DNA from: Candidatus Omnitrophota bacterium | GTDB taxonomy: Bacteria > Omnitrophota > Gorgyraeia > Duberdicusellales > 4484-171 | Assembly: GCA_021735655.1 (NCBI GenBank) | Contig: JAIPGM010000001.1 | Location: 128,001 to 192,000, forward strand | Direction: 5' to 3' | Length of the DNA stretch: 64,000 bases | Shown here: positions 3 to 63,038 of the stretch, piece by piece | How positions within the stretch are numbered: the first letter of the stretch is position 1 | Layout: each line of letters begins with the position of its first letter | Program-made: the position numbers and the translations under genes | Notes under the pieces: generated by a model | Told to the model about the DNA's origin: nothing | The model's input: only the letters and a program-made list of their open reading frames with translations | Databases searched by the model: none

Positions 3-515
3 CTTGAGGTGGGAACCGGTTCAGGCTGGCAAACCGCCATATTAGCTACTTTAAGCTATGGCGGTAGTGTTTATTCAATCGAACAAGACCTCGAAGTAGC
101 TAGGGTTGCTCAAAGTAATATTTCGGCGGCGAGGATTAGCAATATTTTCCTTATTCAAGCTGATGCAATGCAACCAATAGATGTATTAGCCGGTAAAAAA
201 TTTGAACGAATCATTGTTTCCGGGGCATTACCACAAGGAATACCGGTCATATTGTTAGATTATCTCGACTTGTCAGGAATAATGATTGCTCCGATAAATC
301 ACGGTAACTCTAGTGATAGTTTATGGAGGATTACCAAGGGGTATGACGGAACCATGGCTGCATCTAGAGTAGATAAAAATATGAGATTCCAGCGGATCAA
401 TGTTGCAAGTAGTACCTCAGTAATTCCAGTTAATCAGGCTAAGAAATTACAAGATTTATCTATTGAGCAAGCTACAGAGCTTGGTGTTCTGTTGGCTGAT
501 AGGAAAGCTCGAGCT
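3..515 (+). CDS. pcm: Module 0 (5' truncated): C-terminal part of protein-L-isoaspartate O-methyltransferase.
   Basis: LEVGTGSGWQTAILA is a SAM-binding motif I identical in style to the PCMT VLEIGTGSGYQAA. The spacing of the downstream motifs fits the PCMT fold. Confidence 0.55.
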
Positions 516-3500
516 CCGCTTGATAATGGAAAATCTTTATCGAGACGTAGCTTTGGTTTTATGGTGACCGCTTTGGGAGTGGGGTCATTTTTGACTGTTT
601 GTTCTAAGTCCTCTGATTTGAAACCGGAAGGCAATCTCATTGGGACTGGACTCACAGTAGGATTAACTTTCGCTCCTGGATTAGGAAGAAATATTGGGGC
701 ATATGAGGAGACAGTATGGACTGATCAGGATGTTGAATTTTTATGCCAAGAAGCGAAATTGATCAGAAAATTATGGAATGTTCCTTTTGTTTTATTCTCT
801 GTTTATACTCCTCCGATTGCCGGTAGCAATTACGCTCAAAGTTATCGATGGATTAAGCAGATGCATGAAGCTGGAGTTCGTCTTTTGCCACATATCTCAA
901 ACTATGATGGTCGCTATCTTCCTTCACCAATCGATATTAATGCTTGGGGTATTTCTGGTAGGGAAAAGAACCTATACAAAGATTTTATTAGGGGTTTGTA
1001 TCATGAGTTTAGCTTACGCAATGAAGAGGGTATTTTTTCTGAAACTATTGTTGGTTGGAATGTTTTTAACGAATATGATTATTTAGCTGTAAATAATCCT
1101 AAATGGTTTGCCAGAACGGGCGAGATTGAGGGATTATTGCAGGGTCTGGATGAAGCTGGGATAGTTGATAATCAAGAAAGAACAAGGGTAATACACGGGC
1201 ATGTTATCGATAATATCCTTTTAGCTACAGAGGAAACAACTCGAGGCATTATTGGAGTCTATCAAGACCTAGGTCTTGATCCTAAGCCGATATATACAGT
1301 TTGGGCTGGATTGCCGACAACTGAACAGGTTGCTAAAGTTCCTTCTTTGACTGGTTGGTCATTTAATCGTTATGATAAACCAGGCCTGTTAGAATCTTTA
1401 GAAAATGCTGCTCAGATAGTTGGTGGTAAAGAAATAAATATCCATGAGATCGGGGAGAGTTCTCATGATGGAGAGGATGTTCAAGCGATAGAGCTGGCTA
1501 GAACATTAAATGAGATAGTTGGGGCAAGAGCAAAATTTCCGAATTTGCGTCACTTTATGTTTATGAGCGCTAACGATAATCACTGGAAACCGGAGCTAGA
1601 AAGCACAACAGCAGGATACCGAAGATTTGATAGACAAGGAACTCCTTTCTATGGTCAACATTGGGGATTGTTTGCGACAATATTTGATGATGATGGCAAT
1701 GCCATAGCAGTTAGGCCGAAGAAAGCTGTCGGTGCTTTAAGTGTAGAAATTAGTAAGCTGGCTAATGCAAATAAAGCTGGTCAGCCACTTGATAATGGCC
1801 GGGATAGCTCAGCATTAGGCTCAATTACTACTCGGATTAATGTTTCAGCCAATAACCATTCAGTACAATTACAGGGACATCAACATTTAGTGGTCATTGC
1901 TCCTTTCGAAGATTTAAATCAACAGGACAGAGCTACTTTAGATGAACTTCTTGAAACCAAACTACCAATTGGTGACTATGTATTTATCGGCGAAGGAACT
2001 TTTGGTCTGTTAATGGTTGCTAAGATGGCCCTGTTAAAAAATAGCGATATCCGCGATAGTCAGCTAGCCGAACATTTAGGAAATGTCATTGAACTGGCTA
2101 GCTTGATGAATCAAGGGCTTAGCTCAACCGGCTTAAACTTAGGTGAGCCTATAGCCGAGCATCTTAATCGAGTGGTTGAATATTTTCCTTTAACTAATAA
2201 TCAGCGGCTAATAGCCCTTATTCGTAATTTAGTGATAATGCATTATGGGGAACCAGTAATGTTTTTTACTCAGTTTGCTCAAGATCCCGGTCGCTTCCGA
2301 GGAGTTTATCTATCAACCCTTGCAACCAGTCCGGAGATCATCAACCAGATGGAAATACAATATCAGAGGCAAGTACCGCTTAATAACGGAAAAGATACCG
2401 CAAAATATGTTTCAACTAAAGCAGTAATCGTACTTGGTGTATCTGGTTCAGGAAAAACTACCTTTATTGATAATTTGCTTGATGATCGGCACGACCGTTT
2501 TATTTTCCCGCGACTTACTACTACCCGAAAACCACGCAGTGGAGAAACTGCTGATCGTTATCGAGTTTTTGTTAGCCAAGAATTATTTGATTCAAAAGAT
2601 CGGGCCGATCAAATGTTAATGGTAAGAAGGGGCCGTCATGGCGGCTATGCTTATGGGTTAGATAGAGGTAATTTGGATAGGTGCTGCGCCACCGGTAAAG
2701 CATTACTTTTTGATACAACTTCAATCGCTGGGGTAGAGCGAATAAGAGAAATTTTTCCTCAGGCTGAGGTAATCACGGTTATACCTAAATCATTCGATAG
2801 GCTCAAAATTTTAAGCGATGAGCAAATTAAACGTATTCTTGAGTCGCGAATGAAGACAAGACGCATGAGTAGGGTTGATACTGAAAAACGCCTTCAGGAG
2901 GCTGTAAATGAGCTTAAAAGATTTCCTGAGCTTAAACCAGAAGTGGTTGTTGTGAATGATTCAATTGATGACTTAGATGAAAATATGACTAGATTTAATC
3001 AGGCAGCCGTGGAGTTAGTTTCTAAAAATCAGCCGTTAGATAACGGAGTCGATGAAGCGCATTGGCGACACAATCTTGACTTAAAAGGTTTTACTGAATT
3101 TTCTGATGAATATATTGATTTTCTTAAGAGAGTTGATGATCGAGAGGCTAATGATGCCTTTTGGCAACCGATCGAAAGATTTAATCAAAGATTAAAAAGC
3201 AATAAAGCTTTAGCTAGAAAACTTTTAGATTTATCGCAGATAATGCTTGATCAGGAAGTTTCAGCTGCTGAGGCTTTAATTGAGGCCTTAGCGCAAGTTG
3301 ATAATCGTAATGATTCAGAAGTTGCCTTTGAACAGGTAATTGAACTAGCGGCAGTTTTCTTAAGAAGAAATTTTGACCCGAGGGCTTCGCTCATGCATGG
3401 AGTAGTGGCTATAGCCAGTGCGGCTAAATCAGCAACTGATTTAGAAAGTTGTTTGGCTCTTGCCTTGAACATAGCCGAAGATGCTTCTTGGGATTATCCA

Positions 3501-6500
3501 CAAATAAATTTTGCAATCCAGTTTGATATTCCTTTGATTGCTTTAGAAACTAATGATCCAGAGGTTTTAGCTACTCAGTTAGAGTTTTTAGTCAGCCGTC
3601 AAGGATATTCGCAAGCTCGAGCTTATGCCCGGACCCATTGGATGTATAATTTTAGAAGAAAAAATAGTTTTCGCACTACTGATTGTTACGAAGTTGGCCC
3701 AGATGGTCCAAATTGGAAAAAAGGTTATGTTCGCAGAGGATTAGTAGAATTAATTGCTTATAAAAGATTTATTAAAGCTATAGCTAGAGCACAAGAACAA
3801 GGATTAGGCATTGAATCTCGTATAGCTACTAAAGAAAAACAAGTTTATCGTGGTCTGGTTAGGGCTGAAACTCACAGTGATTCAGGCACCTATTATACTT
3901 GGGAGCAAGATTTAATAGTAGCCGTTTGCCCAGTATTTTTAAAAGAGACAGTAGTTTCTAAAACTGATCTGACCGGTCAATTTTTCCCCGGCTTATTAAG
4001 AGTCGAAAATGATCAAGATATTAGCTTATTAGATTGGCATGTTCAGCGTGTTGTTGGTCAATTCCAAAGTTGGGTTACACATAGGCATAGAAATTTTGAT
4101 CAATGGCCACGTTGTCGACGCGATAATTTATTGCTTGAAGCTTACTTACAGCACCAGATTTATGATACCTATAAAAAATTTGCCAGTATTTGGGCTCGGG
4201 CTTATCAAGAAGCATTCATTCCGCAAAAATATCCTAAGGGGAGTCAAAATGATAATCCAGTATATTTAGCTGCAGTTGAAGCAATTGCTTGGTTAGATCA
4301 GGTTGGTGGAGTTGCCAACGAGCAACGTTTGGCCAAGCTGGATGAGCTAGACGATAAACATCAATTAGGGAGATATCGAATATTACTCCAGAAAGCTTTG
4401 CTTGAACCTCAGACTACAGGAGTCTCGCAAGTAACTCAAAAAGTTATCGGAGAGGAAGGTATTTCTGGCAAACCTTTAGATAACGGGAGAGTAAATAAAG
4501 AAGAATTAGCGGTTACAGCAGTTAAAAGAGGGAACACCTCACCGTGGCTGGCGGGTCCCCTCTCTGCTGTAGCCCCTATATATATAGGTAAACAATCGCT
4601 ACCTTTGGATAATGGTAAGTCAATTCAAGAACAATTCATTGAAGATGTAATTGTTTTTTGGAAAGTTTGGGATAAACAATATCCTAGAGATATTGAATCT
4701 AGCATTTGCGTACTCGAAGGCGTAAAAGCTTTGAAAGCCAAAGGTTATATAGTCTATTCTGGCTCAGAGCATCAATTGAATATGGCAATTGCTGGTTTAT
4801 GGAGAAATGTTTCTGAAGATGATAAGTTTGCAATAAAAGAAGCTGTACGTTTATTGGCTGAAAATGTTAGACAACATGCTGACGATAGCGGAAGATTGAT
4901 AGCCTTTTTTGATCGTGAAGATGATGTGCTTTATTTAGCTATGGTTGATGTTGGTCCGGGATTTTTCCGTGATGATGAAGGAAGACCGGTTATTCGGAGA
5001 AAAGATGATCGGTTTGAACAACGTCCGGATTCTACCGGCAGAGGGGTTGGTTTAAAGTGGGTTTCAGATCAGGTAGATGATTTACAAATCCATACGGGTG
5101 GGCATGTTAGCCGACAGCCTAAACCAACAATTGAGTCCGATTCAAGGATAGAAGATCTTAAAGGAACTTTTGTTTTTACGAAAATAAATTTAGCCAGTCA
5201 AGCCAGGGAGCCTTTAGATAATGGTTATGGAGTTTATCAAGGCAGGAGACTATATCTAGCTGCTGATCCGGTTCTAAGTGGAGTTAAAAGTATTCGGCGC
5301 GTGAATTTATCAGGTCTAACCACCAAGAGACAAAAACACACTTTATTCACTAGACGAAAAATTCTCGATTTAGTGAGTGTCCATGCTTTAGCGGCGGCCC
5401 ATGGTTATTCTTGGTTAAATGATATAAATAATAGTTATGCTAAAAACCAAGCTGATGGTGAGGTTACTTATTGGTTTGAGGTTTATTATGCTATGCTTTC
5501 CTGGTTAAAGGGAGAAATTTATAATGCTGAAGGAACTCGCGATGAGGCACCTAGTCTTTATGTCGGCCAACACGTTGGGGCTGGATTTCAAAGTGATTTT
5601 CCAGAAAGAGAAGAAGCGAATGTAGCTATCGGAATTGATCCTTTAGAGGTAACTAACGGAGTAGTTTCAGCAAAATTTCTTGGTAGTACTGCTCCGGCAG
5701 TATACGCACCACGTGGTGGGATTATGAAAATAACCGATTTAGCTTATCTTTGGGCTTTATCGGTTGGTCCGGCCGCCGGAAATTGCGATTTAAATTTAAA
5801 CTACAGCGTTAGAAAAAATATGACTAATCTAGCAGCTAGTTTAGGTAAGAAAACAAGTCAGCTCAGAGGGGTAATGTTATTCAGAGAAAGGCATTCACGG
5901 GTTCCTTTGTTGCAATTGGTTGAAAGCGGAATGCAGATAGATGAAGGTGATTCAGAACTTAGAGAATTCTTAAATGAGGCCAAACGAATCGAGGATAAAG
6001 AAAAACAATGTCAGAAGCCAAGCCTGCAAGATTTTGATAGTTTGAAGCAGACTTACAAAGCTTTTGATAGCAAGGTTAAGGCAACTGGGGTTTATCAAAG
6101 CGGGAACCTTACCTTTATTGCTGACGGGAACCTTATGCCAGCTTTAGTGGCTTTAAAGAGAGGCTCGGCAGATTTTATTTTTGACTCAGGGGGAACTTCC
6201 GAAGGAATTATGGCTGCGGCTAATGTAAGGGCAATTGGTGGAAAAATGAGCGCCCGGATTGTGCCTTATCAGGCAATGGCTGAAGGAAAGCTTCAGGCAA
6301 ACTTAGTTAAAGATAAAGATAAATTTTTAGAAAATGAACTAGCTGAGCTAGCGAGATATGGTTTTTATCCTAAAACTTCAAGAAGAAAATTGCAGCGAGG
6401 GCAATATCGTCTTAATCATGTTTTTGATGCTACAGATTTAGTCAGTGCTGAAGAAGCAGTTTTCTTGGCAGCTCACATTAAAGATAGTCCTTGGGACAGC

Positions 6501-9500
6501 AGATTGAAGGGAGTAAGATTCGACCGTTCGAGTGGTTATTTAGTCGTTGATGTTGTGGTTAGTACGACTGCGGGTGAAGTTTCAGTTTATCGGGTAACTA
6601 TGAATACAAAAGTTTCAGACGTAGAATCAAAATACGATGCGTTATATAAAGTGCGAGGATTGTCATTTAGTAGAATTTTAGACATATTTGATGGTCGTAG
6701 TCAAGCTCAGCAATTAGCTACTGATTACTATGATTTAGCTAAGGCTCTTGGAATGTTGGGTTTGTTTGAAGATGCTATTGATACATTTAGGTTTTCCGAA
6801 AATTTAAGAAGCAGTACTTATTCTTTTAGATGTCGCGCTGCTCAATCTCATTTCTTGGGGATGAAAATGATTCTAGAAGGTCAAGCAGGCCAAAACGCTA
6901 ACGAAATTGCTGCTAAACATTTTGAAGATTCCTTAGAGAGGAGTCGAAAGAGCCGAGACCCACAGCTAAGAACTAGAGAAAGGCTTATTGACCTTTATAA
7001 ATTTCTTGGTGAAACTGCAGTGAAGAAGGATGAACATCAGGATGCTGAACGTTGGTTTACTTTAGCTTTAAGAAGAGACCCAACCAACAAAGAATTGCTA
7101 GATAAGCTTAATCAAATACAAGTTTTAACTAACCAGCCGCTTGATAACGGCAAAGCCTCCCTAGAAGACCAAGCAGCTAGACAGCCTCTTGATAATGGCA
7201 AGCCTACGATTTTTTCAATTTCACCACAACTTCAGGGCACTCCTTTAGGTGAACGGTTGACGCAGCTTAATACTCTTTATCAGGAAAAAGGTACTAACGA
7301 ACAAGGCGCTAGGGCTGTAGTTGAGGCAGTTTTAGTTGAGCCGGAAATAAAACTTGAAGTCTCCCAAAGAATAAGACAGGCTGATCGCTTGGAAGAGACT
7401 CAAGGTTTTTCAGTATCAAAAACTTGGGCTGATCGTCTAAAGGATGAAGTTTTGAGCCGTTCAGTTGAAAAGTTAGTTGACCGGGAGATTTTCATATTTC
7501 AGATGGAGTATGAGTTGTCGGTGGGATTCTTGCAGGCTTTTTATGATTATCAGATTAGTTTAATGCGACAATATCGTAAGGCTGAGCTTGAAGCTGCTGA
7601 TAGCTTGGATCAGCAAACCGCTCTCGAAGCTGAAATAAGAAGAGATGCTACTCACAATACTTCCCAATTTGCTAAATTGCTTATGGCTGGTGGACTAGGA
7701 AGCTTTAAGCCGGATTTAGTCCGCGGCTGGTATCGAATTATTAAAGAATACCGTAGTTTAGCGGCTGCCCGAAATCAAATTCATGTTATGGGCATATTGT
7801 ACTCAAGTGCAATCAAGGGACAGCAGGAAAATCGAGGCTTGATGCAACTTAAGGGTCCAGCTCAGATAGCTGATAGTGATATTATCGAAACAGTTATCAT
7901 CAATCGAGCCAACCCTCAAAATGGTATGCTTGAATTAGTCGATACTTTTGAAGGGCCTGTTCCTGAATTTGGTATTGGTCAGTTAACCATTGAGTTATAT
8001 CGTAACCCACATTCTGAATTACAGGAATATTGGCTATATTGTCCGTCTCAGGTGGTTCAGGATAAATACGACGGGACTAGTGAAGTTGTTGAATGGTTGG
8101 AAAACGGAAGAGTCGTAGTTAGGCAAGCTCAAGTTTTCAATGAAGCTTATCCGGGAGAAACCTCTGATTATTGGCGGGCAGTTCAATCTTTAGTTTATCG
8201 CCGAGTTTGTTTAGAATTCATTCGTCGCGGTCAAGAGAATCGAAGGAATCATGAAAAGAAGCGAAAACCGCGCTGGGGAACTTATTTTGTCGGTAAAAAA
8301 TTACTTTTTTCAACTAGCGAAGTTAACACTACTTTAGTCATTCCTCAAGTTATCGAAGCTCAATACGGCCAGGTAGAAGATAGTCGGGGAAAGAGGGCAA
8401 AAAGAGTTATTCGCGGTGATAATTTTGCCAGATATTCTGGTTTTCGCGACGTAGTGGTTCATCATTATAACCATACGATTGTTCCAGCCGGCATGCCTTA
8501 CTATCCGCAGGATGCTGAAAATGACTTTTTTACTGAATTAAGCATTGCTGAACGATTCCGTCCGGCTATCCATGACGGAAAAATTGATTTAGTAAAAATA
8601 ACTGGTCAGGTCAGCGATGTTATCACTGGCTGCTCAACCATGCATACCCGGATTTTACGTGAGGAAATATTTGCTGAGTTTGCCGAAAAGGTAGTTGAGG
8701 ATCCTTTATTTGGTAATAGTGAAGGTTCAGATCTTGAGCGTTGGCAGGGAAGAAGAATCCAGACCACGGTTGCCCATTATCGAGATCAATTAGGGGTAAC
8801 CGGAAGCCATCAAGAGTTTTTCGCGGCTTTAGGCAAAGTTTCCGACGGACAACCAAGGGTCAAGCGAGACTTCATTGCAAGTATTTTACGTGCTAAACAT
8901 AAACAAAAAGAATTATTTGTCCGAAAGCTATTTGATGGTACTTTTGGCGATCTGGGAGTAACGGAAGCGGAGTTTAAAGCTGCCGGAAAATCTATCTTAG
9001 ATATGCCATTTTTTACTTTTGTCCGCCGTTTTGTTGATTATAAATGCCCCAATCTTATCATTGATATGCTGTTTAATAAAGAATATCGCGATAGAATTGT
9101 TGCCGCTAACGCCGTAATTTTAATCGGTGGTCGCCGCTTTAGTTGGTTTTTTGAAAAACAGCGTGAACGGTTACGTCAATTAATAAGACAGGATCCGAGA
9201 ATGAGATTTCATGTTTTATTTATTGAGGAACATAATATACATACCTCTCCGATAATGCAGCAGGGCACTGATTTTGGCGGAATGCTTTCCTGGGAAGGAA
9301 AAGAAGCCGGCCCAACTAGTTTTGGTAATGCTCAACAAAATGCTTCGCCGACTATTGGAACCTTAGATGGGGTTATCCCAGAACGTTTGAGGCCGATTGT
9401 GCGTGGCCAACAGGGAGAAATCATTAGTGGAACCGGATATGTTGTTGAATACTCACAGGAGCGTAAAGGTGGAGTAAGAATTCCGGATATTAATTCGTTA

Positions 9501-12500
9501 GTGCTTCAAATTGAACAAGCCAGCAGAGACTACGCCGATAAATTAGTTTATGGTCAAATTGCCGTAAATGCTTTAGCTATGGGCATGACCCAAGGCGATA
9601 TTGACAATCAGGCCAAGGGCTTAATTGCAGTTTGGGGGAACTTATTAGAGCAAGCAAGGCCAGCGGCTGTACCTTTAGATAATGGAAAAGTATCTAAGGC
9701 ATCCATAGGTAATAGAAATTTTGGCCAAAAATTATTTAATTTTTTAAAATGGTTTATTGCTCCAAAAAGTCCTAAAATGCTTCAGTTTCTTACTGAGGCA
9801 ATTGTAAATACTACTGGTTTGTCAGCCGATATTACTCAAAAGTTAGAAGAAATAAGAAGGCAGATCGAACAAGCTGAAGATAAGAAAGAGCCTTTAGACA
9901 ATGGTCGGGATAAATTAAGCCCTAGAATATCAAAATTGCTTGCACAAGGAACTGAAGATCCTCAAGTGCAATATCAATTACTAGAGATTATTCGCGCCCA
10001 ACAGCAACCAGTAGTCGGGATGATGGATAATTACCATTTAAATGGTCAAAGGGTTCGCTTTGCGCCTGAGGAAAGTTTAGCTGTAGTCGCAGAATTTGAT
10101 CGTGGTAGTTTTAGAAGAGCATTCAGTCCAAAATTAAGGACGATGATTATTGAAACTCATCCCGATGATTTAATCATTCATGCCGGTGCTACGGCAAATA
10201 TGTTTGTTAGTGAAACTAGGGGAATGATAACTGAGCTTATTCCGCAATATCCGGGATACCGCAATAATATGCCAATTTTTGTTACAGCAGTTCCTGATCC
10301 AGCCGGAGTAACTGATAATTTTGCTTTTAATTTTTTCCAAGGCAAATTAACTTCTTTGGAGGCGGCAAAAAGAGAAGTCCGGGCCCAGGAAGCGATCTTA
10401 AATGCTGGTTTTATTGGTTGGAATCAGACTGGCAATGCCAGTGAAAGGCACATTAATCTTGATTTAAGATTAAGCTTGATTAAAGCAGTCAGAAGGCCGG
10501 ATGGAAGCCTTGATTCTTATCGTAGTGTTTTTCAGAGATTAACTAAAAGTGAACTTGAAAAAATTGACGCTGTTGTAAGGGAGAATGCGGCTGATCAATA
10601 TTTTATGGTCCATCCGTTTAGCAATCATCCACACCATCGGGTTGTAACTCATGCCTTTTTAGAAGCGATTTACACTCACAATCCGCAAGCAACTATATAT
10701 TTTTGGGCTAATCAAGAAGAACACCAACAGTTAATGACCCAGGCTAATGTATTTTTTGTTTTTAGTGAGGGCATGGAGAATTGGAAAGGGTTAATTATTT
10801 TTAACGGAAACCATTCGCAAAATGAACGCCGAGGCGGAAATGGTGAATATTATTGTGATGCTGCTCGGAGTATGGATTTAGCTACCTGGGAAAATTTACA
10901 AGAAAGACTTGCTCGAGAGGAAACTAGTTCGGTAAATTTAAATAGTTTACCGCTTTGGCGACCGCATGCAGAAAGATTTGTAAAGGTAAGGATTGAGCCA
11001 GTCGGTCAAGATGTCCTGAGCACTCCTTTGGATAATGGGAAATCAACTAAGCAGCCAGAGAAAGAGGTAGTTTCTGATTCCCAAAACGATTTTTCTTTAG
11101 AGCAACTGAAAGCGCTTACGGTTGGTAGCCCTAATCTTTCTTTCGGGGTAGGTATTTTAGCTCGTCATCAAGAGGTGGATTTAATTATTCAGGCTTTTGG
11201 TAAGAGAATAATCAAGCGCGGTGCTTTTTACCAGACAAGACCTTGGGAGGAAACCTTAAAAACCGATTTAGCTTCACCTAACGCAGCTAAAGTAGATTTA
11301 GCCATTAAAACATTAGCCAGTTTAGGCGGAGATTACGCGGCCAGAGCTAGGCGCTTTGAACAAGATATAACCGTAATTGAAGTCGACCTGCCAACCCATT
11401 TTCTTTTATACGGCCAGGATTTAACCGGCGAGATTTATTATCAGCTTACTCATATTGGTCTTGAGCGAAGAATAATTTATCTTCCAAGTAAATATCTAGA
11501 GGATGCAAGTGGACCAGAGTTTGTAGCTACTATTTTTAACCACGATCAAAGCGAGCTTGAGGAGTTCATTCCTTTTTTATTAAGTGGCCGAAATATCACC
11601 GATCAAATGGTTGAGCAGGCTCATCAACGGGCCATGCAAGACGATCCTTTTGGTGTTTACCCCCAGGTCGATGACTTGCTTTCTGATATGCAGGCTTATG
11701 ATGATATGTTTACCCAATCGATGGTTGTAGCTCAAATTGCTGCCGTAGATTCAGCTGTTACTACAAAGAATCGTCAGCTATTAGATGCTTTAGCCTCCCG
11801 CACGCCAAGTGGGCCAGAAGCCTTAAAGGCTAAAGGCCTTTTATTTGAACTAGCCAACCTTGAAACTAAAATTGGTTGTTTGTATGAGGCATTAGGCCAA
11901 AGAAAAAGTGCAATCAGTCATTATCGTAGCGGCGTAGCCGCATTGTCCAGAGTCTCAAAAACAACTATAATTGATACTGGTTTGTTGCCGCTTCAATTAC
12001 AGGTAAGAATGCTTTACCTCTATGCTCGCGAAGGCATGTTTGGCCGTCTTCGAAGTGGTTTTCGTAAATTTTCCCAAGTTAAAATTGGTCGCCAAGCTGA
12101 GGCTTCTGAGGTTGAGCTTTTTGAATGGTATATGGATAGCAATTTTGTGCCGGTAAGAAGAGCTGTGGTTGGAATCCTGCGGCATCACATTACTTGTGGG
12201 CATAACAACTACCCTAAAGATCAGGTAATGACTACTGTTAGATATATTGAACAGTGTCAATATATTCCTTCGGATATAACCCCACGTCTTAAACCAGCTT
12301 ATCTTCAAATTAGAAACACTCCAAGCTTAGCTAATGTTTTTTCAGCCGCCGAATATTTTAGGAGACATAAAGTTCCCGGCTGGGATAAGGTTTTAGCTAA
12401 AACCTTAGGCGGTAATGGCCAGATGGAGGAAGAATATTTGGGTGAATTTGTTGAAGCTAAAGCAGCTGAAGATCAAGTTTGTTATTCGCGGGTAATCGAG

Positions 12501-51500: not shown

Positions 51501-54500
51501 TTGGCTCTTCACCGAATGATTTCTTTCCTTGAGATTTGGGCTGAGTCAGCAGGAAATTTTTCTTTTGATTTAACCGTCCATGTAGAAAAAGTTGCCGGCC
51601 GGATTTTTGAAGCAGCTGATAATTTGGTAAGAACCAATAATACACGTTTGAGAAAATTTACCCAAATTGATCAAAAGAGAACCTTTGATCATCAAGCCGG
51701 CCGGCCGACTTTGCCTTGGCGTCATAGTCTTTATGAAATTGCCATTGAAATGGCACCAATGGGAATACTTTATCATTTGCGGGATGTCGGTAGACACTTA
51801 TCTTTACTTAATAGATTTAAGGTTGCAATAAAGGAAGATGGTCAGATAGATAATTATCATATATGTCGTCTGCGTTTTGCTTTATTTGAGTTGACCAAGC
51901 TAGGCTATTATTTAAAAAGTAACCAGCGCAGAAGGTTAATCGGCCTTCTTCCTGGAATAATTACCGATGAAAAGTGTGATGGCCTATTAAGGAAAGATGC
52001 CATGTTTTGTTTGGCAATGGCAATTAGGTGGCAGGAAGAAGAATCCTGTAAATCTGAGGTAGATCGGGCAAGAAAATTATATTTAGGCATATTACAAAAT
52101 CCCCTTGAAAGTGCTCAGCTGCATACCTGGGCTCAGCATTGTCTCTATAGGATTTTCGGAGAAAATTACTTCCGGCGGATAAGCGCTGATTTTGATCGCT
52201 TAAACGGAGTTAACTTACCCAAGCCGCTTGATAACGGTCGGGATAGTTCGGTCGGGATTACCTCAGAACCGTTAAGAATTTTAGCCGAGCTAATTTCGAA
52301 TAGTTATCGGACTAAGGCTTTAGTAGAATTTTTGCAGCCTTTCTTAGATTGTGAATCTGTTAATTATTTACAAGAAGAGATAGCAAAGCATTGCCAGCTA
52401 CCGGCCTGGGGTGTTGTTTCTTCTAGCCATTATCTTGATGAAGGGTATTTCTATTATGGTTTAAAATCCGGTATTGATCGCTGTCTCGAAAGAGGAGTTA
52501 TGGTTGAGAATGACGGTAACAGATTATACGTTACTAAAGATTCAGAGGATACCGTAAAATATAGCGGCCTTGACGAAACTCAAGAAAACCAGTGGGGAAT
52601 TTTTATTTTTCCAAGCGAGTATTTCAATCAGGCTATCAATTGCGGTTATGCCGAGGCCGGCTTAAGGCTTTCACATAACCGCTTAGGCATAACTACTTAT
52701 CCATACTTCAAAAGTTCTTTATCGCTTGCGCCGGCACGCTTTCTGATAATTGATAGATCTAAGGCAGATGAACATAGGCACCTGGAAGGCCAGCCGAAGC
52801 TAAAAGATAAACTTCAAGCCTTGACCGAAGCAGGATTGAAGGTTCTATGGTTGCCGGATTCTTCCGGCCCATTCTTTGACCCTGATTTCCAATATGCTTT
52901 CGGGGAGTTGTTGTTTAGTAATGATATTCCGGAAACCAATCGCTTTCTTTTTTATCCGTCCGCAGATACTCAAGATCTTACAAAAATCATCTGGTGGGTT
53001 TTACAGTCGTTAAGAATGAGTAGTATAAAAAATCGGCTATTACATAATATGGAGTTAGCTCGGCAATTTAAAAAAATCGGCCCCTTTGATAATGGGCGAG
53101 CTGATTTTACAACAGCAGACGAACAGATCGGTAATCTTTTTGCTGAGGCAGTTATTACAGGAGATAATGTTTTAATTGAGACTCATTGGGATGCTGTAGC
53201 GGCTAAGAGAGGCGGCAGTTTGAATATTTTAGAACATGCTGGCTTAAGGATTACAAGAAGTTTAGCTTTAGGAATTGTACCGCGGGCTGGTGAATGGCCG
53301 GATAGGGTTGAAACCGATCAAATCATTCTGAGTTCATCTCGCTATGGTTGGATCGATTCTGAAAGAGATATTGAGCATTTGTTAAGCGGCTTTGATCAAG
53401 CCAGATTGCTTAATTCGTTTAATCTTGGCCATTATTATCAGGGTTGTCACTATCGAAGTTTCCTAAGCTGGCTAGCGGTTTTAAAGAGTAGTCATTTCCC
53501 GGCAGTTATTTTTCATTTCATAGGTGAGCTAATTAATTCTTGGGGTATTAAGCCAGCTGCTAAGAGTGATTTTCCAGTTTTGGCCAGTCGAAGGGATATC
53601 TTTTCTTTCGTTAGCGTGCCTTATGTTTCAGATATAGAAAAATTAGATTTGCCAGTTGCAGTGTTTTTTGATGGTAAGCTTAGTTCGCTTAGGCGTGGCG
53701 ATAGCCGGAAACAGCCAACTTTAATATTAGCTTATTGGCAAGCTTTGAATGGTTTTATTGGTTTTAAAGAACAGATAGCTAGGGAAACAGCAGAATTTCA
53801 GAATACCCCTTTAGATAATGGCCGCAAAGAGCATGACATCTCTGATAGTACGGTAATCCAATGGCCGCTTAATGTAATTGTTAAAGATATGCGCGGTTTA
53901 TCCAAAGGCGAGATATTAGCTGTTGTTAAAACCGGTAAAATATTTTGGGGAAGGGAAATAGTAGGAGCTATTTTTTCTGACCGCAATATTGTTTTTGGTA
54001 AAGTGGTCGATGATAAGTTTATAGTATTTGATGATTGGTTAATTGAAAGAATTCCTGGAGGATTGTTAGAGGGGTTGCGGAGAAGCATTTTATTTTTGCC
54101 TTATTTAGGAAGTATTTTAAGAAACAAGACATCGTCAATAAATAAACCCCTGGATAATGGCAAGAAATATAATTATCGGCAAGTCCTAGAGATGGTTGAC
54201 TGTTTTGATAGTGCAAGGTTAGAGGCTCACTTATTTAGAGCTCTTGGCAGAGTTGAGACTGAAGCCGTATCTATAGCTGGTGATATTATTAGGGCGGCTA
54301 GAAAATTTGAACGGATAACTAAAGCAGTAAAATCTCTTTATAGGAAAACTTACGGCAAGCTACCTAATTTTACTCTTGCTTTCGATCCTTCCGGTCAAGG
54401 TATGTATGGGGCGTATCAGGAGGATGATACAGCCGGATTTTTTGATCATATTGGCGTAGCTCCAGAAGATGTGCTGCTTGAGGTAGGCAGCGGCGATGGA

Positions 54501-57500
54501 AGCATTTCGGATTTCATGGCCCATATGTTTGGGATTAAGGCAACTGGGATTGAGGTTTGGGAGCCATATTATCATTACGCAGTTTTCTTAAGAGATGAAG
54601 CAGTAAGAAGAAGATTCATTCCAGAAGGTAAAGTAGATTTTTTAAATAATAATTTAGTAGATGTTGATTTTTCAAAGTATTCTTTAGTGTACTACGCTGC
54701 TCTTGGCACAAGAAGAAAAAGTGAGCTGGCTGCTAGATTGCTTGGGGTAAGAGAAAAATCCAGGATATTAATTCGGGGTTCACCTGATGAGTTAGTGGAA
54801 GGGATTATCGCATCACATCCTGATTTTAGCTTAAGGAAGCTTGAGATAGAAGTTAATGAAAACCTTACTGGAATTAAGGCAAGGGTTTATACTCGAGAGA
54901 CAATTACCAGTTACCAGCCGGTTCTCGACGTTCCTCTAGATAATGGCCGAAAAAATAACCCTCAGATGGTCAGAGCGCGCTTAGCCGCATTTGAAAAATC
55001 AATCGAGGGCATCGTGCCTAGGGCAGATCCGCTTTATGACCATTTAATTCGTTTTTATCAATATCCTTTGAATAATTTGGGTGAACCTGACGAAGAGACC
55101 TATGTAAGGAATAATACCAAGGAGCAGGAGCGGGAGCTTCTTAGATTCTGGGCCGGCCATTTCGGCCTTCCTAAAAATTACGGCGGTCATGTGACTATCG
55201 GAATCGGTCAGGCTGAATATTATGCCATGTACGTGGCTAGCAATCGATTTCCCAAGGCTATATTTTATATTTCTAATCAGGTCGATAGCCTTCTTTATGA
55301 TACTTTACAGGTGTTGGGCATTGATCAAGGAAGAATAAAGTTAATTAGGTCTTTAGAGAATGGCGAGATCGACTATGGTGATTTAAAGAGAAAGATTAGG
55401 GAGAATTCATCATGGCCGGCGGTGGTCTGCTTGACTGCTGGCAGATTCCTGGGGGCGGTTGATGATTTAGGAAAAGTGGAAGGAATTTTAGGGAGCCTGG
55501 GCCTAAAGCATAAACATATTCATTGCAGCATGTCACCGTTAAGTATAGGCCAGTCGTTTTTGGAAGATGCGGCAAAGATAGATTTTCAACATGGCTTAGA
55601 TAGCATGAGTCTACCGTTGTATCATTTTGTAAGGTGTCCGATGCCAGGAGTCATCGTTCTTACCAGAAGGAAATACCTTCAGAACATTGCTTGTAGTCAA
55701 AAAGCAGCTGAGTATGTTAACTCTAACGACACCACTAATTCTGGATCACGTAGTGGTCATGCTCCGCTTTATCTTTGGTTTGCTACAAAAGTTATTGGGA
55801 CTAAAGGATTTAAGGCTCAGGCTGAGCGGGCCAGGGAAGTTTGTGTTTCTATTAAAGCTCTATTTGACCGTTACGGTTATCCTTGCCGGTTCACCGCGCA
55901 AAAAAATACAATAATCTTTGAGCCACCATTTTATGAGTTGCGTCAAAAATGGGGCTTATTATCACACGGGCAATGGTCCTGTTTTGAGATTGTACCTTAT
56001 TTGACCCCGGTTGAGATAGCCGAATTTGTAAGTGATCTTTTAGGTGATCATTCTCAAGCGGTAGCCGCCCCGGTAGAAACCGTATTTCCGGAACGGATTG
56101 TCTATGAACCGTCTCCGGAAGTCTTAGATGTTTTGGATCAATTAGAAGCAAGGATCCAAATTTTGATGGAAAGATTTTTAGGATTTCCGGCAAATATCGC
56201 CGGCAATGAGACATCTTTTGCTGCCTTGAGCAGCTTGTTTAAATACACCTTGAGAAAAAAGGATGTGGAAGGTTTTCGACACGAAGCCTTGAAATTTTTT
56301 ACTGATCTTTACGGTTTAAGGTACGAAGATTTTTACTGCGGCATAACTGCTGGAGGAACCTGGGGAAATCGGGTTGGCCTATTAGTTGGCCGGGAAAATT
56401 TTCCCGGCGGGATACTTTATTACAGTCAGGATTCGCACTACTCGATTGATAAAGTGGCCAGGAGCCTTAACATGGAAGTAAGAAAGGTCGCCTCTTTGTC
56501 TAACGGCCAAATTGATTATGATGAATTAGCCGAAGCCATAGAGGAAAATCGTGGCCGCCCGGTAATTGTAAATCTTAACATCGGCACAACTATGAAAGGC
56601 GCTATCGATAATCCCCAAAGAGTTATTGAAATATTAAGAGAACAGGATGTTACTGATTACTATATCCATTGTGATGCCGCGCTTTTTGGTATGATTTTAC
56701 CGTTTCTCGAGGCTGCGCCAAAAATTGATCTGGCTAACGGCGTCCATAGTATTGCCATATCCGGACATAAATTTCTCGGCCTACCGATGCCTTCGGGCAT
56801 ATTCATGGTTCGGAAAAATTGTGCTAGGGATAGATTGATAACTATTTCGGATCGATTATTGACTGCCCAAACTGGCCATGTCATTTTGTATTTTTGGCAG
56901 GCTGTTGCTAGCCGAGGGTATGAGGGTTGCAGAGAAGAAGCTATGGCTTGTGTGGATAATGCCCAATATCTTTATTACAGATTACAGGAAAGGGGATTGC
57001 CTTCGGAGGTAAACCCTTTTTCCAATATAACAATGTTTTCCCGGCCATCGGGTAGCCTAATTGACACTTGGCAGTTAGCGCCTTGCGGGGACCGCGTCCA
57101 CGTAGTGGCCATGCAGCATGTTACCAGAGATAAGATTGATGCTTTTGTCCAAGAGTTAACTAGGGATATGCAGCAAGGGCAGATAGAACTAGCTAGTTCT
57201 ATGCAGCCTCTTGATAATGGTAGACGGCGCAAAGCATCGCTAGTGCCAGAGGTAGGCCTTGATGAATTAGTTGAAAAACATTTAGGAAACTTGAAGTTGA
57301 TATCTTCTGAGTATGGAAAAAGCGTAGGCATGTTATCTACTATTTTAAGACGACCAGACAATGAGAGCCTTCAACAAAGAGCAGAGGAGTTGAGGAAGAT
57401 TGGTCCTGGCCGTCTGGCCTTAGCAGCTGACTTAGGCGAATTCGGAGTAGATAGTTTGAAAATTGGTCAGAAGTATGGCGTTGGCCGAAGAACAGCGGCT

Positions 57501-60500
57501 AGTTGGCTTGTTAATAATGGATTTGGCGATAGGGTTAATAGCGCTAGATATAGTCGAAGTAGAACATTAAGACGTCAAAAAATAGCTCAGGAATATGAGC
57601 CGATTGCTCGCTTATTAGATGGTGAAGGCAATCTTTTACAGACATTTTATACCCATATTTCTTGGAAAGAGGTATCTGCTTATCCTTTCGCTGTTTTAGA
57701 TGAATTAGAAATCCAAGCTACCGAAGTTTTAAGTTATGGTGGTAAGCAATGGGGTCAGTTTAAGGGGCATGCTGGCCATAGAGCTCGGATAACATTGGAG
57801 TGGGGCTATCCAATAGAAGTTGCTATGTCTAGCAAAAGAGGAGTTGATCAAGGTAGCTATAGAGCCATGCAGCTTAGGACCTATCAGTCAACTCTTTTTG
57901 ATAGAGAGGGGGAACTCTTAGATACTGCTTTTTTCGTTTTTGGTTACGATGAAGATTTATGTCGGGGAACAACAAAAGTTGTTAACTATCAATTAACCAA
58001 GGCTGGAAGAATTAGTATTTTTGGTGATGAACAAATACAGCTAATAAAACATAAACAAGCCTGGGCTAATTTAGTTGCAGTGGATGGAAAGGTGGTCAGG
58101 GCTACCATTCTTGATAGAGAGGGCGGGAATGAGGTTATTACTTATAATTTTTCTCGAGTGTATGATGAAAACAACCGAGTAATTTACACTTTTACTGGAG
58201 GTTTAGAGTTTAAGCAAAGCAGTGTGCCGCCTGCGTTGTTGAAATCTTTAGCTAGAGGAAGAATTGAAGGTATTTACCTAAAAGGTGGTCGTGGCAACTT
58301 AACTATTGGCGGCAGAACTTGGGTTGTTTTAAGTGACTATAAAAATTATCCATGTAGGGCTTATATTGAAGAAGGGCTTGTGGTCAGAGTAGAGGTTTTA
58401 GGTGAAGAAGGAGAGGCTGTTTTTACCAAGCATTCTCACCGCCTTTATGATAGAGAAGATAACTTTGTCGAAGTATTTTATGATTCTATTTCACCAGAGC
58501 GACTTAACCAGGTTGGTTTGTGTCGTAGCAGTCCACTTATTGTGACTCCTTCAGGAGAGTTATGCTTATCTGGAAATCGTTATACTTTTGAAAATGAAGG
58601 CGGCTCTAAGGCTATTGTTTGGATTGAACCCGGAGTTAAGTTCACCAGAAATAGAAAGCCGGATGGTAAAGCAGTTAGAATTGATTTTTATGATCAATAT
58701 ATGCATTATAAGCATACCCGTTATGCAGTCAGAATCTATGAAGATGAAGGAGTTTTAATTGATACTTTTTTTGGTCCAGGATATGCTGAGAAGCTAAAGA
58801 TTTTTGGTGATGTAATTGGCTTTGCTCAACTCGATACGTTAGGTTCTCTTAATATTGGCTACACAACCCATACCTTTACTAAATATGGTGACCCTCGACA
58901 TTTTGTTAGATTTAGTCTACACCAGGCTCAAGTTCTGGATGTAGATGTTCTTGGCCATGACTATTGTCATATCGATAGAGTTGGCTTTGACGCTTGGCCT
59001 GATATGGCTATCGATCACTTTGAAATGGCCCGAATTGTTGATGAGCAGGATCAGCTATTACACACTTTTTGGTACGGTGTTTATTCAGAACGGATTCCCA
59101 ATAGAGGTAGAGCTAGAATTTTAGGGGCGACTTTTACTGCCGGAGGTCACCTGCGACTTGGTAACGAAGATGTTTATCATGATGCGAACTTTCCCGAAGC
59201 TAGAGTAAATGTTACTTATATTGACGGAGAAGTAAGTGAGATATTAATTTATCAGGATGCTCAAGGCAACTCAGTAAATTATCATTATACTAAAAAGCAG
59301 ATAGATAATTATAAGCGCAGAGTGCAATATTATAATCTGCGCGGTCATGTATTCGAGCATGCTTTAAGAGTTGCCTTACCTTTTTTAAGCGACTGCCCTT
59401 TTGATTATCAAAAGCGCATTGGTGGTGAAGTTGATGGGTGGGTTGATGGTGAAGCTGAACCAAAGCCAGCTGATTCCAGATCACTTAAACGTCCAGATTT
59501 TACTAGTCCTTTTAGCTGGGCAATGAGTGAAGGGGTATTGTGCTATATTGATGCTAAATTCAATCTTAGAATTAAGTTTTTAATAGAATATCTAGAGGCA
59601 ATTAAAGAGACTTTAAGAACTGATTATTTTACTGATTGTGATGCCCCAGTTGAAACACATTTTGTAGGAAGAGTTATATTTGAGATAGTTTATTTAGGCA
59701 GAGTAAGTGAAGCTAATGTAGAGGCAAAGTTAGCTGGTCATCAGAGAAATTTTTCAGCTACCAATTCTGAGATGCTCACCTTGAAACCAGTTAGCTTTCT
59801 TGATGAGTACGGAGATAGGCTTAAGACCGCTGGTCAGGATACTTTAGTAAGGTTTCTGAGACATCTGAGAGTTTTTCATTATAAGCCAGGTCGCAAGAAA
59901 GCCTTAGATAGCTATTTAGCCCAATTAGAACAGGATAAAATTCCCGAGATAGCCGATGAGCAGACTAATCTTTTTTCAAGGCCGCTGGATAATGGCCGAG
60001 AAAGATTATTGGTTAGTAGCGGTAATAGTCATTTAAAAAGTTTTCGTGAGGCGAAAGGTTTATTAGCAAAATTAAAATGTACAGACATTTTTGGGGTTGT
60101 CATGGGTTATCGCGCTGCCTTAGCTGATAGAGATAATTATCAGAGAGTATTTGCTCGTGATTCTGTTTGGATGGGGTTAGCCGAAATGCTTTCCGGCTGT
60201 AAAGGTAGTTTAGCTTTAACATTAAGCGTATTAAAACATCATCAATGTCGGTACGGACAGAGACGCGGGGCTATTCCGAGTAACATTTCAAGGTATCATC
60301 GGGTAAGTTATGGGACAACTAGCCCAAGAATTGATCCAACCCTTCTTTATATTGTTAGTTCTGGCCAATATTATCGGTCCAGACCAGCCTATTTTCAAAA
60401 ACAGTTTCTCGTTGAAAATTTATCGCCGCTACAAAAAGCTATAGCATATTTAGAAAGACAATGGGTTATGGATAACGGTTTATTGTTTATTCCGATTGCC

Positions 60501-63038: not shown

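Follow-up and report, generated by a model that had tools for sequence, protein, structure and literature searches.

A 63-kb Omnitrophota reading frame with modules separated by a recurrent PLDNG[K/R] peptide: a candidate cellular polyprotein

Introduction

Giant open reading frames (ORFs) are both common and well documented in the Omnitrophota. ORFs of more than 20 kb are present in most Velamenicoccia, and peptides of a 39,678-aa ORF of Velamenicoccus have been detected (PMC10066038). An ORF of 85,804 aa has been published for the same phylum in a study that stated the cleavage points of the giants as unknown (West-Roberts et al., 2023; bioRxiv 10.1101/2023.11.21.568195), and ORFs of up to 147,155 aa have been described together with a class named "multi-enzyme metabolic cluster" (Nielsen and Lui, 2026; bioRxiv 10.64898/2026.06.07.730766). 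Some Omnitrophota giants are reported to carry peptidase domains of the C39 and S8 families. Here, we analyze an ORF of at least 21,011 sense codons that occupies most of a 64,000-nt stretch of contig JAIPGM010000001.1 (positions 128,001 to 192,000, hereafter the window), and the hexapeptide PLDNG[K/R] that recurs between its modules.

The window ORF is of a known kind, the Omnitrophota multi-enzyme giant ORF (Nielsen and Lui, 2026; West-Roberts et al., 2023; Seymour et al., 2023). It shares with this class the phylum (judged from the neighboring gene), a length above 10 thousand amino acids, scattered transmembrane (TM) helices, mostly unannotated and poorly conserved sequence, and a chain tiled by many Pfam families, with sugar metabolism, GT1, radical SAM, methyltransferases and HATPase_c among them. 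An initial annotation of the window had ranked the frame beyond the bacterial giant genes known so far, for its length and even more for its architecture. This does not stand, because ORFs of 39,678, 85,804 and 147,155 aa have been published and the multi-enzyme class had already been described; length and general architecture are neither a record nor a first.

What differs from the class is a strict hexapeptide that delimits every recognizable module of the window ORF and is reported in none of the class papers. Nielsen and Lui (2026) use neither polyprotein nor linker nor any word in cleav-, the Omnitrophota giant-ORF literature does not mention the junction motif, and a full-text search for PLDNG was also empty. 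The junction hexapeptide and the RNA elements that junctions bracket in this ORF appear to be unreported. Whether the giants are one protein or many is an explicit question in the field, for which the locus offers 62 candidate cut sites defined to the residue; PLDNG[K/R], which resembles a cutting mark, is a first concrete handle on how these giant bacterial genes become working proteins.

Results

A stop-free frame of 63 kb

Frame 3 of the + strand is free of stop codons from nt 3 to a TGA at 63036-63038, and all 45 stops that this frame contains in the window lie 3' of 63038. Each of the remaining frames is interrupted by 1,143-2,528 stops, and in these five frames no open stretch is longer than 311 codons. 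An open frame of 63 kb cannot be attributed to chance.

3..63038, + strand: giant ORF, 21,011 sense codons, TGA at 63036-63038, 5' end beyond the left window edge

The initial annotation had described this stop-free frame correctly, and its placement of the start upstream of the window is also confirmed. The first residues of the ORF match only positions 78-197 of the PCMT profile (Pfam), and since the N-terminal part of the profile is unmatched, the 5' end of the ORF must be outside the window. The same annotation had stated that the product is not a repeat protein. An all-against-all BLAST of the modules agrees, with two paralogous pairs only.

The guanine-plus-cytosine (GC) content is 40.7%, and the GC skew is positive and steady. 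Codon usage is homogeneous from one end of the ORF to the other (r 0.96-0.98), and the neighboring ordinary gene and other Omnitrophota contigs show a similar usage. This bears on the worry, already voiced in the initial annotation, that the frame might not be natural and might stem from chimeric assembly, from in-silico concatenation or from engineering, as in a "fuse-and-cleave" design. Engineered polyproteins with protease sites do exist (PMC6130400), and neither the source genome nor a motif-bearing relative was found in the GTDB species genomes, JGI metagenome contigs and IMG/VR that were searched. However, errors break ORFs and would not create an open frame of 63 kb. Codon usage is natural and uniform and matches that of the adjacent natural gene, the junction motif described below is written with all synonymous codons and also occurs in decayed variants, natural homologues are 49-62% identical (one module) or 73% identical (flanking gene), and giant multi-enzyme ORFs have been documented independently in Omnitrophota. 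An artefactual or engineered origin is very unlikely, and we give hardly any credence to it.

A hexapeptide recurs throughout the translation

The translation contains 58 invariant copies of PLDNG, compared with about 0.02 expected from its composition. The Gly is followed by R in 27 copies, by K in 24 and by H in 3, with V, Y, Q and G once each, so that K or R follows in 51 of the 58. Beyond the six motif positions, no flanking residue is conserved. Each junction motif comprises 18 nt (P-L-D-N-G plus one residue), and the coordinates given for motifs 1-58 are those of the first nucleotide of the P codon.

Within 516..62822, + strand: 58 PLDNG motifs, exact P-L-D-N-G plus one residue
516, 1785, 3033, 4473, 4602, 5211, 7137, 7185, 9672, 9891, 11025, 13185, 14793, 14814, 17232, 18807, 18828, 20244, 20343, 22539, + strand: motifs 1-20
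23175, 23844, 24462, 24819, 25584, 27096, 27783, 29541, 30198, 33036, 33087, 34968, 35679, 36132, 36261, 36282, 37884, 40065, 41667, 42168, + strand: motifs 21-40
42648, 43554, 44145, 46332, 47643, 47727, 48450, 49344, 49869, 52224, 53808, 54147, 54933, 57207, 59982, 61263, 61350, 62805, + strand: motifs 41-58

Four variants with one changed residue (PLNNG three times, PFDNG once) bring the number of junctions to 62. Two of the variants are located directly before a guanylate-kinase domain and a methyltransferase domain, suggesting that they act as junctions too.

2376..2390, + strand: variant PLNNG(K), 8 residues ahead of the guanylate-kinase domain start
28872-28886, + strand: variant PLNNG, just ahead of a methyltransferase domain
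39534-39548, + strand: variant PLNNG
53082-53096, + strand: variant PFDNG

The motifs divide the ORF into 59 pieces, or 63 when the four variants are counted. Most pieces are 150-950 aa long, and there are also short spacers of 7-43 aa. In three places the site is doubled, as PLDNGR(V/A)PLDNG; these doubled junctions may be redundant sites or products of local duplication.

14793-14831, 18807-18845 and 36261-36299, + strand: doubled junctions PLDNGR(V/A)PLDNG(K/Q), 60-83% DNA identity, repeat family D8

At the DNA level, the motif copies make use of all four Pro, six Leu, two Asp, two Asn and four Gly codons. Conservation therefore acts on the peptide and not on the DNA, and the use of every synonymous codon rules out a DNA repeat or a recombination scar as the basis of the motif. 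An N-glycosylation sequon and a sortase signal were also considered and rejected, as their patterns do not fit. That five residues are invariant at 58 sites while their codons change freely requires the peptide to be recognized in a sequence-specific manner.

Junctions coincide with protein boundaries

Domains were identified by Pfam profile searches and PDB sequence searches of the translation. None of the 62 junctions was located inside any of the 25 Pfam/PDB domain matches, and no match spanned a junction (P ~7e-7 for random placement, computed with 20% of the residues covered by domain matches). The motif was found between every pair of recognizable proteins in the ORF. The profile matches extended over complete domains, for example 5-277 of 277 positions for PFK, 2-177 of 182 for guanylate kinase and 2-177 of 179 for Bac_transf. 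Module ends fell about 10-40 residues from the ends of free-standing homologues with solved structures, and the family combinations inside one module were those of single proteins. The module sizes of about 150-950 aa were also in the range of complete proteins.

Signal- and anchor-like sequences are placed accordingly. Twin-arginine-like motifs with a hydrophobic stretch occur only twice in the ORF, 3 and 13 residues past junctions (e.g. PLDNG-K-SLSRRSFGFMVTALGVGSFLTVC). In 6 of the 10 modules with membrane helices, the first helix starts no more than 40 residues past a junction, compared with about 12% expected. Hydropathy dips from -5 to +12 around the motif, from which we infer exposed, hydrophilic junction linkers of about 15-20 residues. 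Met, other start codons and Shine-Dalgarno-like motifs were not enriched downstream of junctions, indicating that the modules are not separately initiated. We rejected internal initiation at the modules on this basis.

The first modules illustrate the arrangement.

3..530, + strand: module 1, protein-L-isoaspartate O-methyltransferase (PCMT), Pfam E 9.8e-14, PDB 1jg1, N-terminus outside the window
531..1799, + strand: module 2, 423 aa, without family match, begins right after a junction with K-SLSRRSFGFMVTALGVGSFLTVC, a twin-arginine-like signal

A module with a twin-arginine-like signal is thus flanked by the cytosolic PCMT and the ATP-dependent guanylate kinase, an order that calls for separation of the modules. 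A single-sequence AlphaFold model of module 2 had a pLDDT of 36 and was unusable.

The initial annotation had seen in the translation a succession of unrelated folds that looks like a chain of complete proteins. The Pfam and PDB sequence matches bear out the unrelated folds, and the chain of complete proteins is supported by the PLDNG[K/R] junctions, by the domains that they leave uncrossed, and by the signal- and anchor-like sequences that follow them. We conclude that the chain holds at least 50 complete, formerly independent and unrelated proteins, both enzymes and membrane proteins. The ORF has the hallmarks of a polyprotein in that it contains several complete, foldable proteins without internal start or stop signals and a conserved junction peptide that is always between domains.

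Proposed separation of the modules by a dedicated endopeptidase

On balance, we lean towards the reading that the giant gene encodes a cellular polyprotein, which is separated at PLDNG[KR] by a dedicated endopeptidase encoded outside the window. Translation would start upstream of the window and read through at least 50 formerly independent proteins, which would lack start codons, ribosome-binding sites and stops of their own. PLDNG[K/R] would be the recognition site of one dedicated, sequence-specific endopeptidase, encoded either by a part of the ORF that precedes the window or by another region of the genome. With Leu at P4 and Gly at P1, the site would resemble the double-glycine type. The products of cutting would be single enzymes, proteins of the membrane or for export, and short spacer peptides. 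The ORF, the motif with its conservation at the protein level, its confinement to the regions between domains, the signal- and anchor-like sequences that follow it and the lack of internal initiation signals are observations, whereas the cleavage itself, the cut position within the motif and the cutting agent are inferred. Separation at the motif appears the most economical explanation because the motif lies between all of the proteins, because signals and anchors come after it, and because cytosolic and apparently exported modules alternate. The doubled sites also count for processing, as they are seen in processed polyproteins.

Several observations weigh against this reading. Pfam searches (to E 0.5 for unmatched modules) and PDB sequence searches revealed no peptidase family among the 21,011 residues encoded in the window, and regular expressions for catalytic motifs gave nothing beyond chance; about half of the modules match no family, and the ORF continues upstream. 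The C39 domain (PF03412) has no match in the window, which, like the Asn at P2, speaks against the likeness to double-glycine sites. A cut after the Gly would expose Lys or Arg, which are destabilizing N-terminal residues in many bacteria. In a related metagenome-assembled genome (MAG; GCA_021735145.1, locus L002), the gene for a substrate-binding protein that also follows the giant ORF of the window (see below) is immediately preceded by a 7,445-aa multi-enzyme ORF; this ORF has no similarity to the window ORF, and its last 3,323 residues contain no PLDNG or other recurrent exact motif. "SSS" as an alternative junction in this ORF was not supported. Three homologues of the PFK-like module (L007, L008 and P0126) have no PLDNG either, and a second genome with PLDNG junctions was not found in searches of GTDB, JGI and IMG/VR. 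Since related giants are devoid of PLDNG, cleavage at a shared motif is not general to the giants of this phylum. Finally, such giants have been read as intact, membrane-anchored megaproteins (Nielsen and Lui, 2026; bioRxiv 10.64898/2026.06.07.730766).

The intact chain is the explanation that we weighed next to the polyprotein. The product would remain an uncleaved megaprotein, anchored in the inner membrane by its scattered helices, and PLDNG[K/R] would be a recognized linker, whether as an Asn-Gly turn, as a docking site for a partner or chaperone, or as a modification site. The published view of multi-enzyme giants, the detected peptides of the 39,678-aa Velamenicoccus ORF, the lack of a detected protease in the window, and the presence of related fused modules in other Omnitrophota without a shared motif are all in line with this proposal. 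We nevertheless consider it unlikely. Strict conservation of five residues at 58 sites is more than a passive linker needs, exported modules alternate with cytosolic, ATP-dependent ones, and it would be hard to explain why a chain should carry twin-arginine-like signals and N-terminal anchors in its interior, directly after junctions. In addition, many modules belong to homo-oligomeric families (PFK, GDH and FBPase) and would be expected to cross-link as domains of one chain. The motif also brackets, on both sides, the spacer peptides of an RNA element that is translated in two frames.

Separation could also proceed without a protease. The chain might be released in the manner of 2A/StopGo peptides at the end of ...PLDNG, or broken by cyclization of the Asn to a succinimide, with the PCMT modules handling isoaspartyl by-products. 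This would agree with the window being free of a recognizable protease, and with a short motif whose invariant part lies entirely N-terminal to the putative break. Like 2A, the motif is a short peptide that ends in a turn (N-P-G in 2A, D-N-G here) and separates proteins of one ORF. Asn-Gly is the dipeptide most prone to succinimide and isoaspartate formation, and the ORF encodes one clear and one weak PCMT-like module. However, the 2A consensus D(V/I)ExNPG-P is absent, the upstream conservation that extends through arrest peptides is not seen, and 2A needs about 18 residues as well as eukaryotic ribosomes; to our knowledge, 2A is not functional on bacterial ribosomes. Spontaneous Asn-Gly chemistry is slow and leads mainly to deamidation rather than to chain cleavage, and the conserved K/R after the Gly would be left unexplained. 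We therefore regard a protease-free mechanism as improbable. Decidedly doubtful, too, is a wider reading, in which a free-living or episymbiotic bacterium would have replaced the operons of dozens of metabolic, envelope and membrane genes by one polyprotein resolved at the hexapeptide, at its most radical without a protease, by ribosome skipping or by Asp-Asn-Gly self-cleavage with isoaspartate repair; the RNA elements would be tolerated as excised spacers. If this were true, cellular life would express genes in a way not known before.

Comparison with other processing systems

Several known systems come close to the polyprotein reading. Viral polyproteins of the picornavirus 3C and the potyvirus NIa/TEV type share with the window ORF a single ORF for many complete proteins, a short conserved junction peptide, and the absence of internal starts and stops. 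In contrast, the window ORF belongs to a cellular DNA genome, it comprises about 60 mostly metabolic modules, its motif is unlike known viral sites, and no protease was detected in the window. MARTX toxins, other autoprocessing multi-effector proteins and gingipain/HagA polyproteins are bacterial long chains that are cut in linkers into functional proteins. MARTX toxins differ in having about 3,500-5,300 aa and about 3-5 effectors, and in being cut by an internal CPD after Leu in loosely defined linkers. The cargo of the window ORF is metabolic rather than made up of toxin effectors, and Pfam found no CPD or RTX repeat in it. Double-glycine leader processing by C39 peptidases has in common with the PLDNG junctions the Gly at P1 and the hydrophobic residue at P4 (Leu), and C39 domains are recurrent in Omnitrophota giants; however, P2 is Asn instead of Gly, Ala or Ser, and the leader-helix pattern is not conserved upstream of the motif.

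If the polyprotein reading is correct, the locus would represent the first operon-scale polyprotein in a cellular organism. The annotation of such ORFs would then have to be split into modules at the motif, and estimates of metabolic capacity for these reduced genomes would change. The site and its enzyme would also provide synthetic biology with a natural, highly specific bacterial "fuse-and-cleave" system.

Hairpin elements in the junction spacers

Three of the spacers between junctions contain an RNA element. An exact 19-nt core, CCTCACCGTGGCTGGCGGG, is present in three copies at 4537, 20292 and 36196 (spacings of 15,755 and 15,904 nt), with zero copies expected by chance. Each core caps a long hairpin, with minimum free energies of -38.7, -40.9 and -36.7 kcal/mol and z-scores of -3.8, -2.3 and -1.7 for copies 1, 2 and 3, respectively, and each hairpin is followed by a TATATAT run.

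4500..4582, + strand: hairpin copy 1, core 4537-4555, in a 43-codon spacer between two junctions, 103 bits
20258..20338, + strand: hairpin copy 2, core 20292-20310, in a 33-codon spacer between junctions, 79.5 bits
36159..36241, + strand: hairpin copy 3, core from 36196, in a 43-codon spacer between junctions, 102 bits

Copies 1 and 3 are about 96% identical over about 90 nt, and their flanks are unrelated. In copy 2, the stem sequences differ and the hairpin architecture is the same. The reading frame differs as well, as copy 2 gives SPHRGWRD and the others TSPWLAG. The element is accordingly conserved at the nucleic-acid level, with its peptide incidental. A covariance model scored the three copies at 79-103 bits and the next-best match in the window at 12.5 bits. 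It had no match in eight related loci, and Rfam has no family match in the window or at the hairpin. A search for the core, confined to viral contigs, returned one chance match.

Every hairpin has a junction on either side, an arrangement to be expected if meaningless spacer peptides are cut out. Candidate functions include a processing site, an antitermination element, a pause site and a domesticated mobile element. The embedded hairpins show that RNA-level signals can reside within these giant ORFs, and the earlier statement that there are no catalytic RNA domains does not address such elements.

The elements raise the question of whether separation might occur at the RNA level, by processing of the transcript (e.g. 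at the three hairpins) or through internal promoters, with the pieces translated independently and the open frame incidental. The presence within the ORF of three structured elements about 15.8 kb apart, each followed by TATATAT, would fit, and the neighboring gene, with a TATAAT about 13 nt before its ATG, hints at leaderless translation. However, three elements face about 60 modules, and neither Met nor other starts nor Shine-Dalgarno-like motifs are enriched past the junctions. Moreover, 21,011 stop-free codons and a motif conserved at the amino-acid level require translation through the junctions. We consider RNA-level separation very improbable.

A perfect 10-bp stem (UUCCCACUUC / GAAGUGGGAA) was also noted at 47667-47689 (+ strand), inside a 28-codon spacer between junctions. 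Its sequence is unlike the three elements with the 19-nt core.

Module content

The initial annotation had proposed profile searches of the translation. These gave about 25 distinct Pfam families, which tile the chain; none dominates by copy number, and radical SAM is the most frequent with 3 copies. About half of the chain, or about 30 modules, is without a family match. The families comprise PCMT, guanylate kinase, class II FBPase glpX with TPR, glycogen-phosphorylase-like, FkbO/RidA-like, PFK-like, PNP_UDP, TreT, GH77, GT2, PglC-type Bac_transf, GDH-like, Ser/His-decarboxylase-like, GH100 invertase-like and GT1 proteins and several methyltransferases. Matches to HATPase_c, P-loop and DHFR-like families were weak. 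No carrier-protein, condensation or ketosynthase families of nonribosomal peptide synthetases or polyketide synthases were detected by Pfam in the window. Membrane modules are also present, and a crude hydropathy predictor (not DeepTMHMM) found 14 TM-like stretches in the ORF.

5226..7151, + strand: module 7, class II FBPase (glpX) with TPR, Pfam 1.6e-34, PDB match
14829..17246, + strand: module 15, OxsB-like B12-binding radical-SAM enzyme, CxxxCxxC present
17247..18821, + strand: third radical-SAM module, Pfam/PDB
20358..22553, + strand: module 20, PFK-like protein, Pfam, metagenome homologues 49-62% identical
30213..33050, + strand: module 30, OxsB-like paralogue of module 15, 26% identity to it
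33102..34982, + strand: module 32, TreT-like trehalose synthase, Pfam, PDB E 1.8e-34
46347..47657, + strand: module 45, PglC-type phosphoglycosyl transferase, N-terminal membrane helix 40 aa past the junction
54162..54947, + strand: weak PCMT/DOT1-like methyltransferase module, weak Pfam match
54948..57221, + strand: module 54, pyridoxal phosphate (PLP)-dependent serine/histidine-decarboxylase-like, PDB E 1.6e-70, extra N-terminal region

The catalytic signatures CxxxCxxC, P-loops and SAM motif I are unbroken, so that the enzyme modules are likely to be active, as judged from sequence. The two OxsB-like B12/radical-SAM modules and the further radical-SAM module suggest nucleoside or cofactor-type chemistry, beyond sugar metabolism. 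In module 30 (30213-33050), the OxsB-like part is fused to a PNP_UDP-type phosphorylase domain. The PCMT (3-530) and the weak PCMT/DOT1-like module (54162-54947) share the ORF with 62 Asn-Gly junctions, which may be a coincidence or reflect a functional link.

Searches for the motif in other genomes

GTDB species genomes, JGI metagenome contigs and IMG/VR were searched with DNA patterns of the doubled junctions and yielded no true match; five metagenome matches were out-of-frame chance matches. A profile built from 52 motif instances was run against 1.84 billion representative proteins and gave nothing relevant, in a search that is nearly blind to sparse motifs in giants. The penalties for multiple hits and local entry about equal the motif score, and this search can therefore not show absence. 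Its output consisted only of repeat proteins of the FN3 and cadherin types and of an 87-aa fragment in which TPLDNGRKKKAS occurs twice. A homologue search with aa 1401-2400 of the ORF gave 8,000 word-sharing candidates, none of them significant, and was uninformative owing to its word prefilter. As far as searched, the PLDNG motif appears to be lineage-specific.

Among small database proteins, the 87-aa fragment (P0122, JGI, on a contig of 1,375 bp) alone contains PLDNGR twice (...KKTTPLDNGRKKKAS...KKTIPLDNGRKKKAS). It may be part of a related gene that carries junctions, or a translated tandem DNA repeat.

The downstream gene and homologues of the PFK-like module

The giant ORF is followed by a gene with a start codon of its own.

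63079..64000, + strand: Opp/Dpp-type substrate-binding protein (SBP_bac_5) gene, ATG at 63079, signal peptide, runs off the window, outside the giant ORF

Its best homologues, at 73-55% identity, are almost all proteins of Candidatus Omnitrophota/Omnitrophica MAGs, which places the locus in Candidatus Omnitrophota; this evidence is indirect, as the window contains no rRNA or marker gene. In most relatives, PGK-TIM-SecG lies upstream of the gene, and a giant multi-enzyme ORF takes this place in the window and in GCA_021735145.1. The TATAAT box of the gene is only about 13 nt before the ATG and a clear Shine-Dalgarno sequence is lacking, a hint that the organism may use a very short leader or leaderless translation.

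Homologues of the PFK-like module, with 49-62% identity, were found on short metagenome contigs, and the close ones include a protein of an Omnitrophota MAG. The context of the PFK-like region varies. In L008, another domain, which has an ATG and a signal peptide of its own, comes before it; in P0126, a ROK kinase domain does so, and in L007, the region is part of a larger ORF. On the latter contig (ENA ERZ24794679, 4780 bp), the ORF with the PFK-like region shifts frame at 3056-3065, at about 3x coverage. The frame change is probably a sequencing error, and the true ORF would then have at least 1,580 aa and run off the contig.

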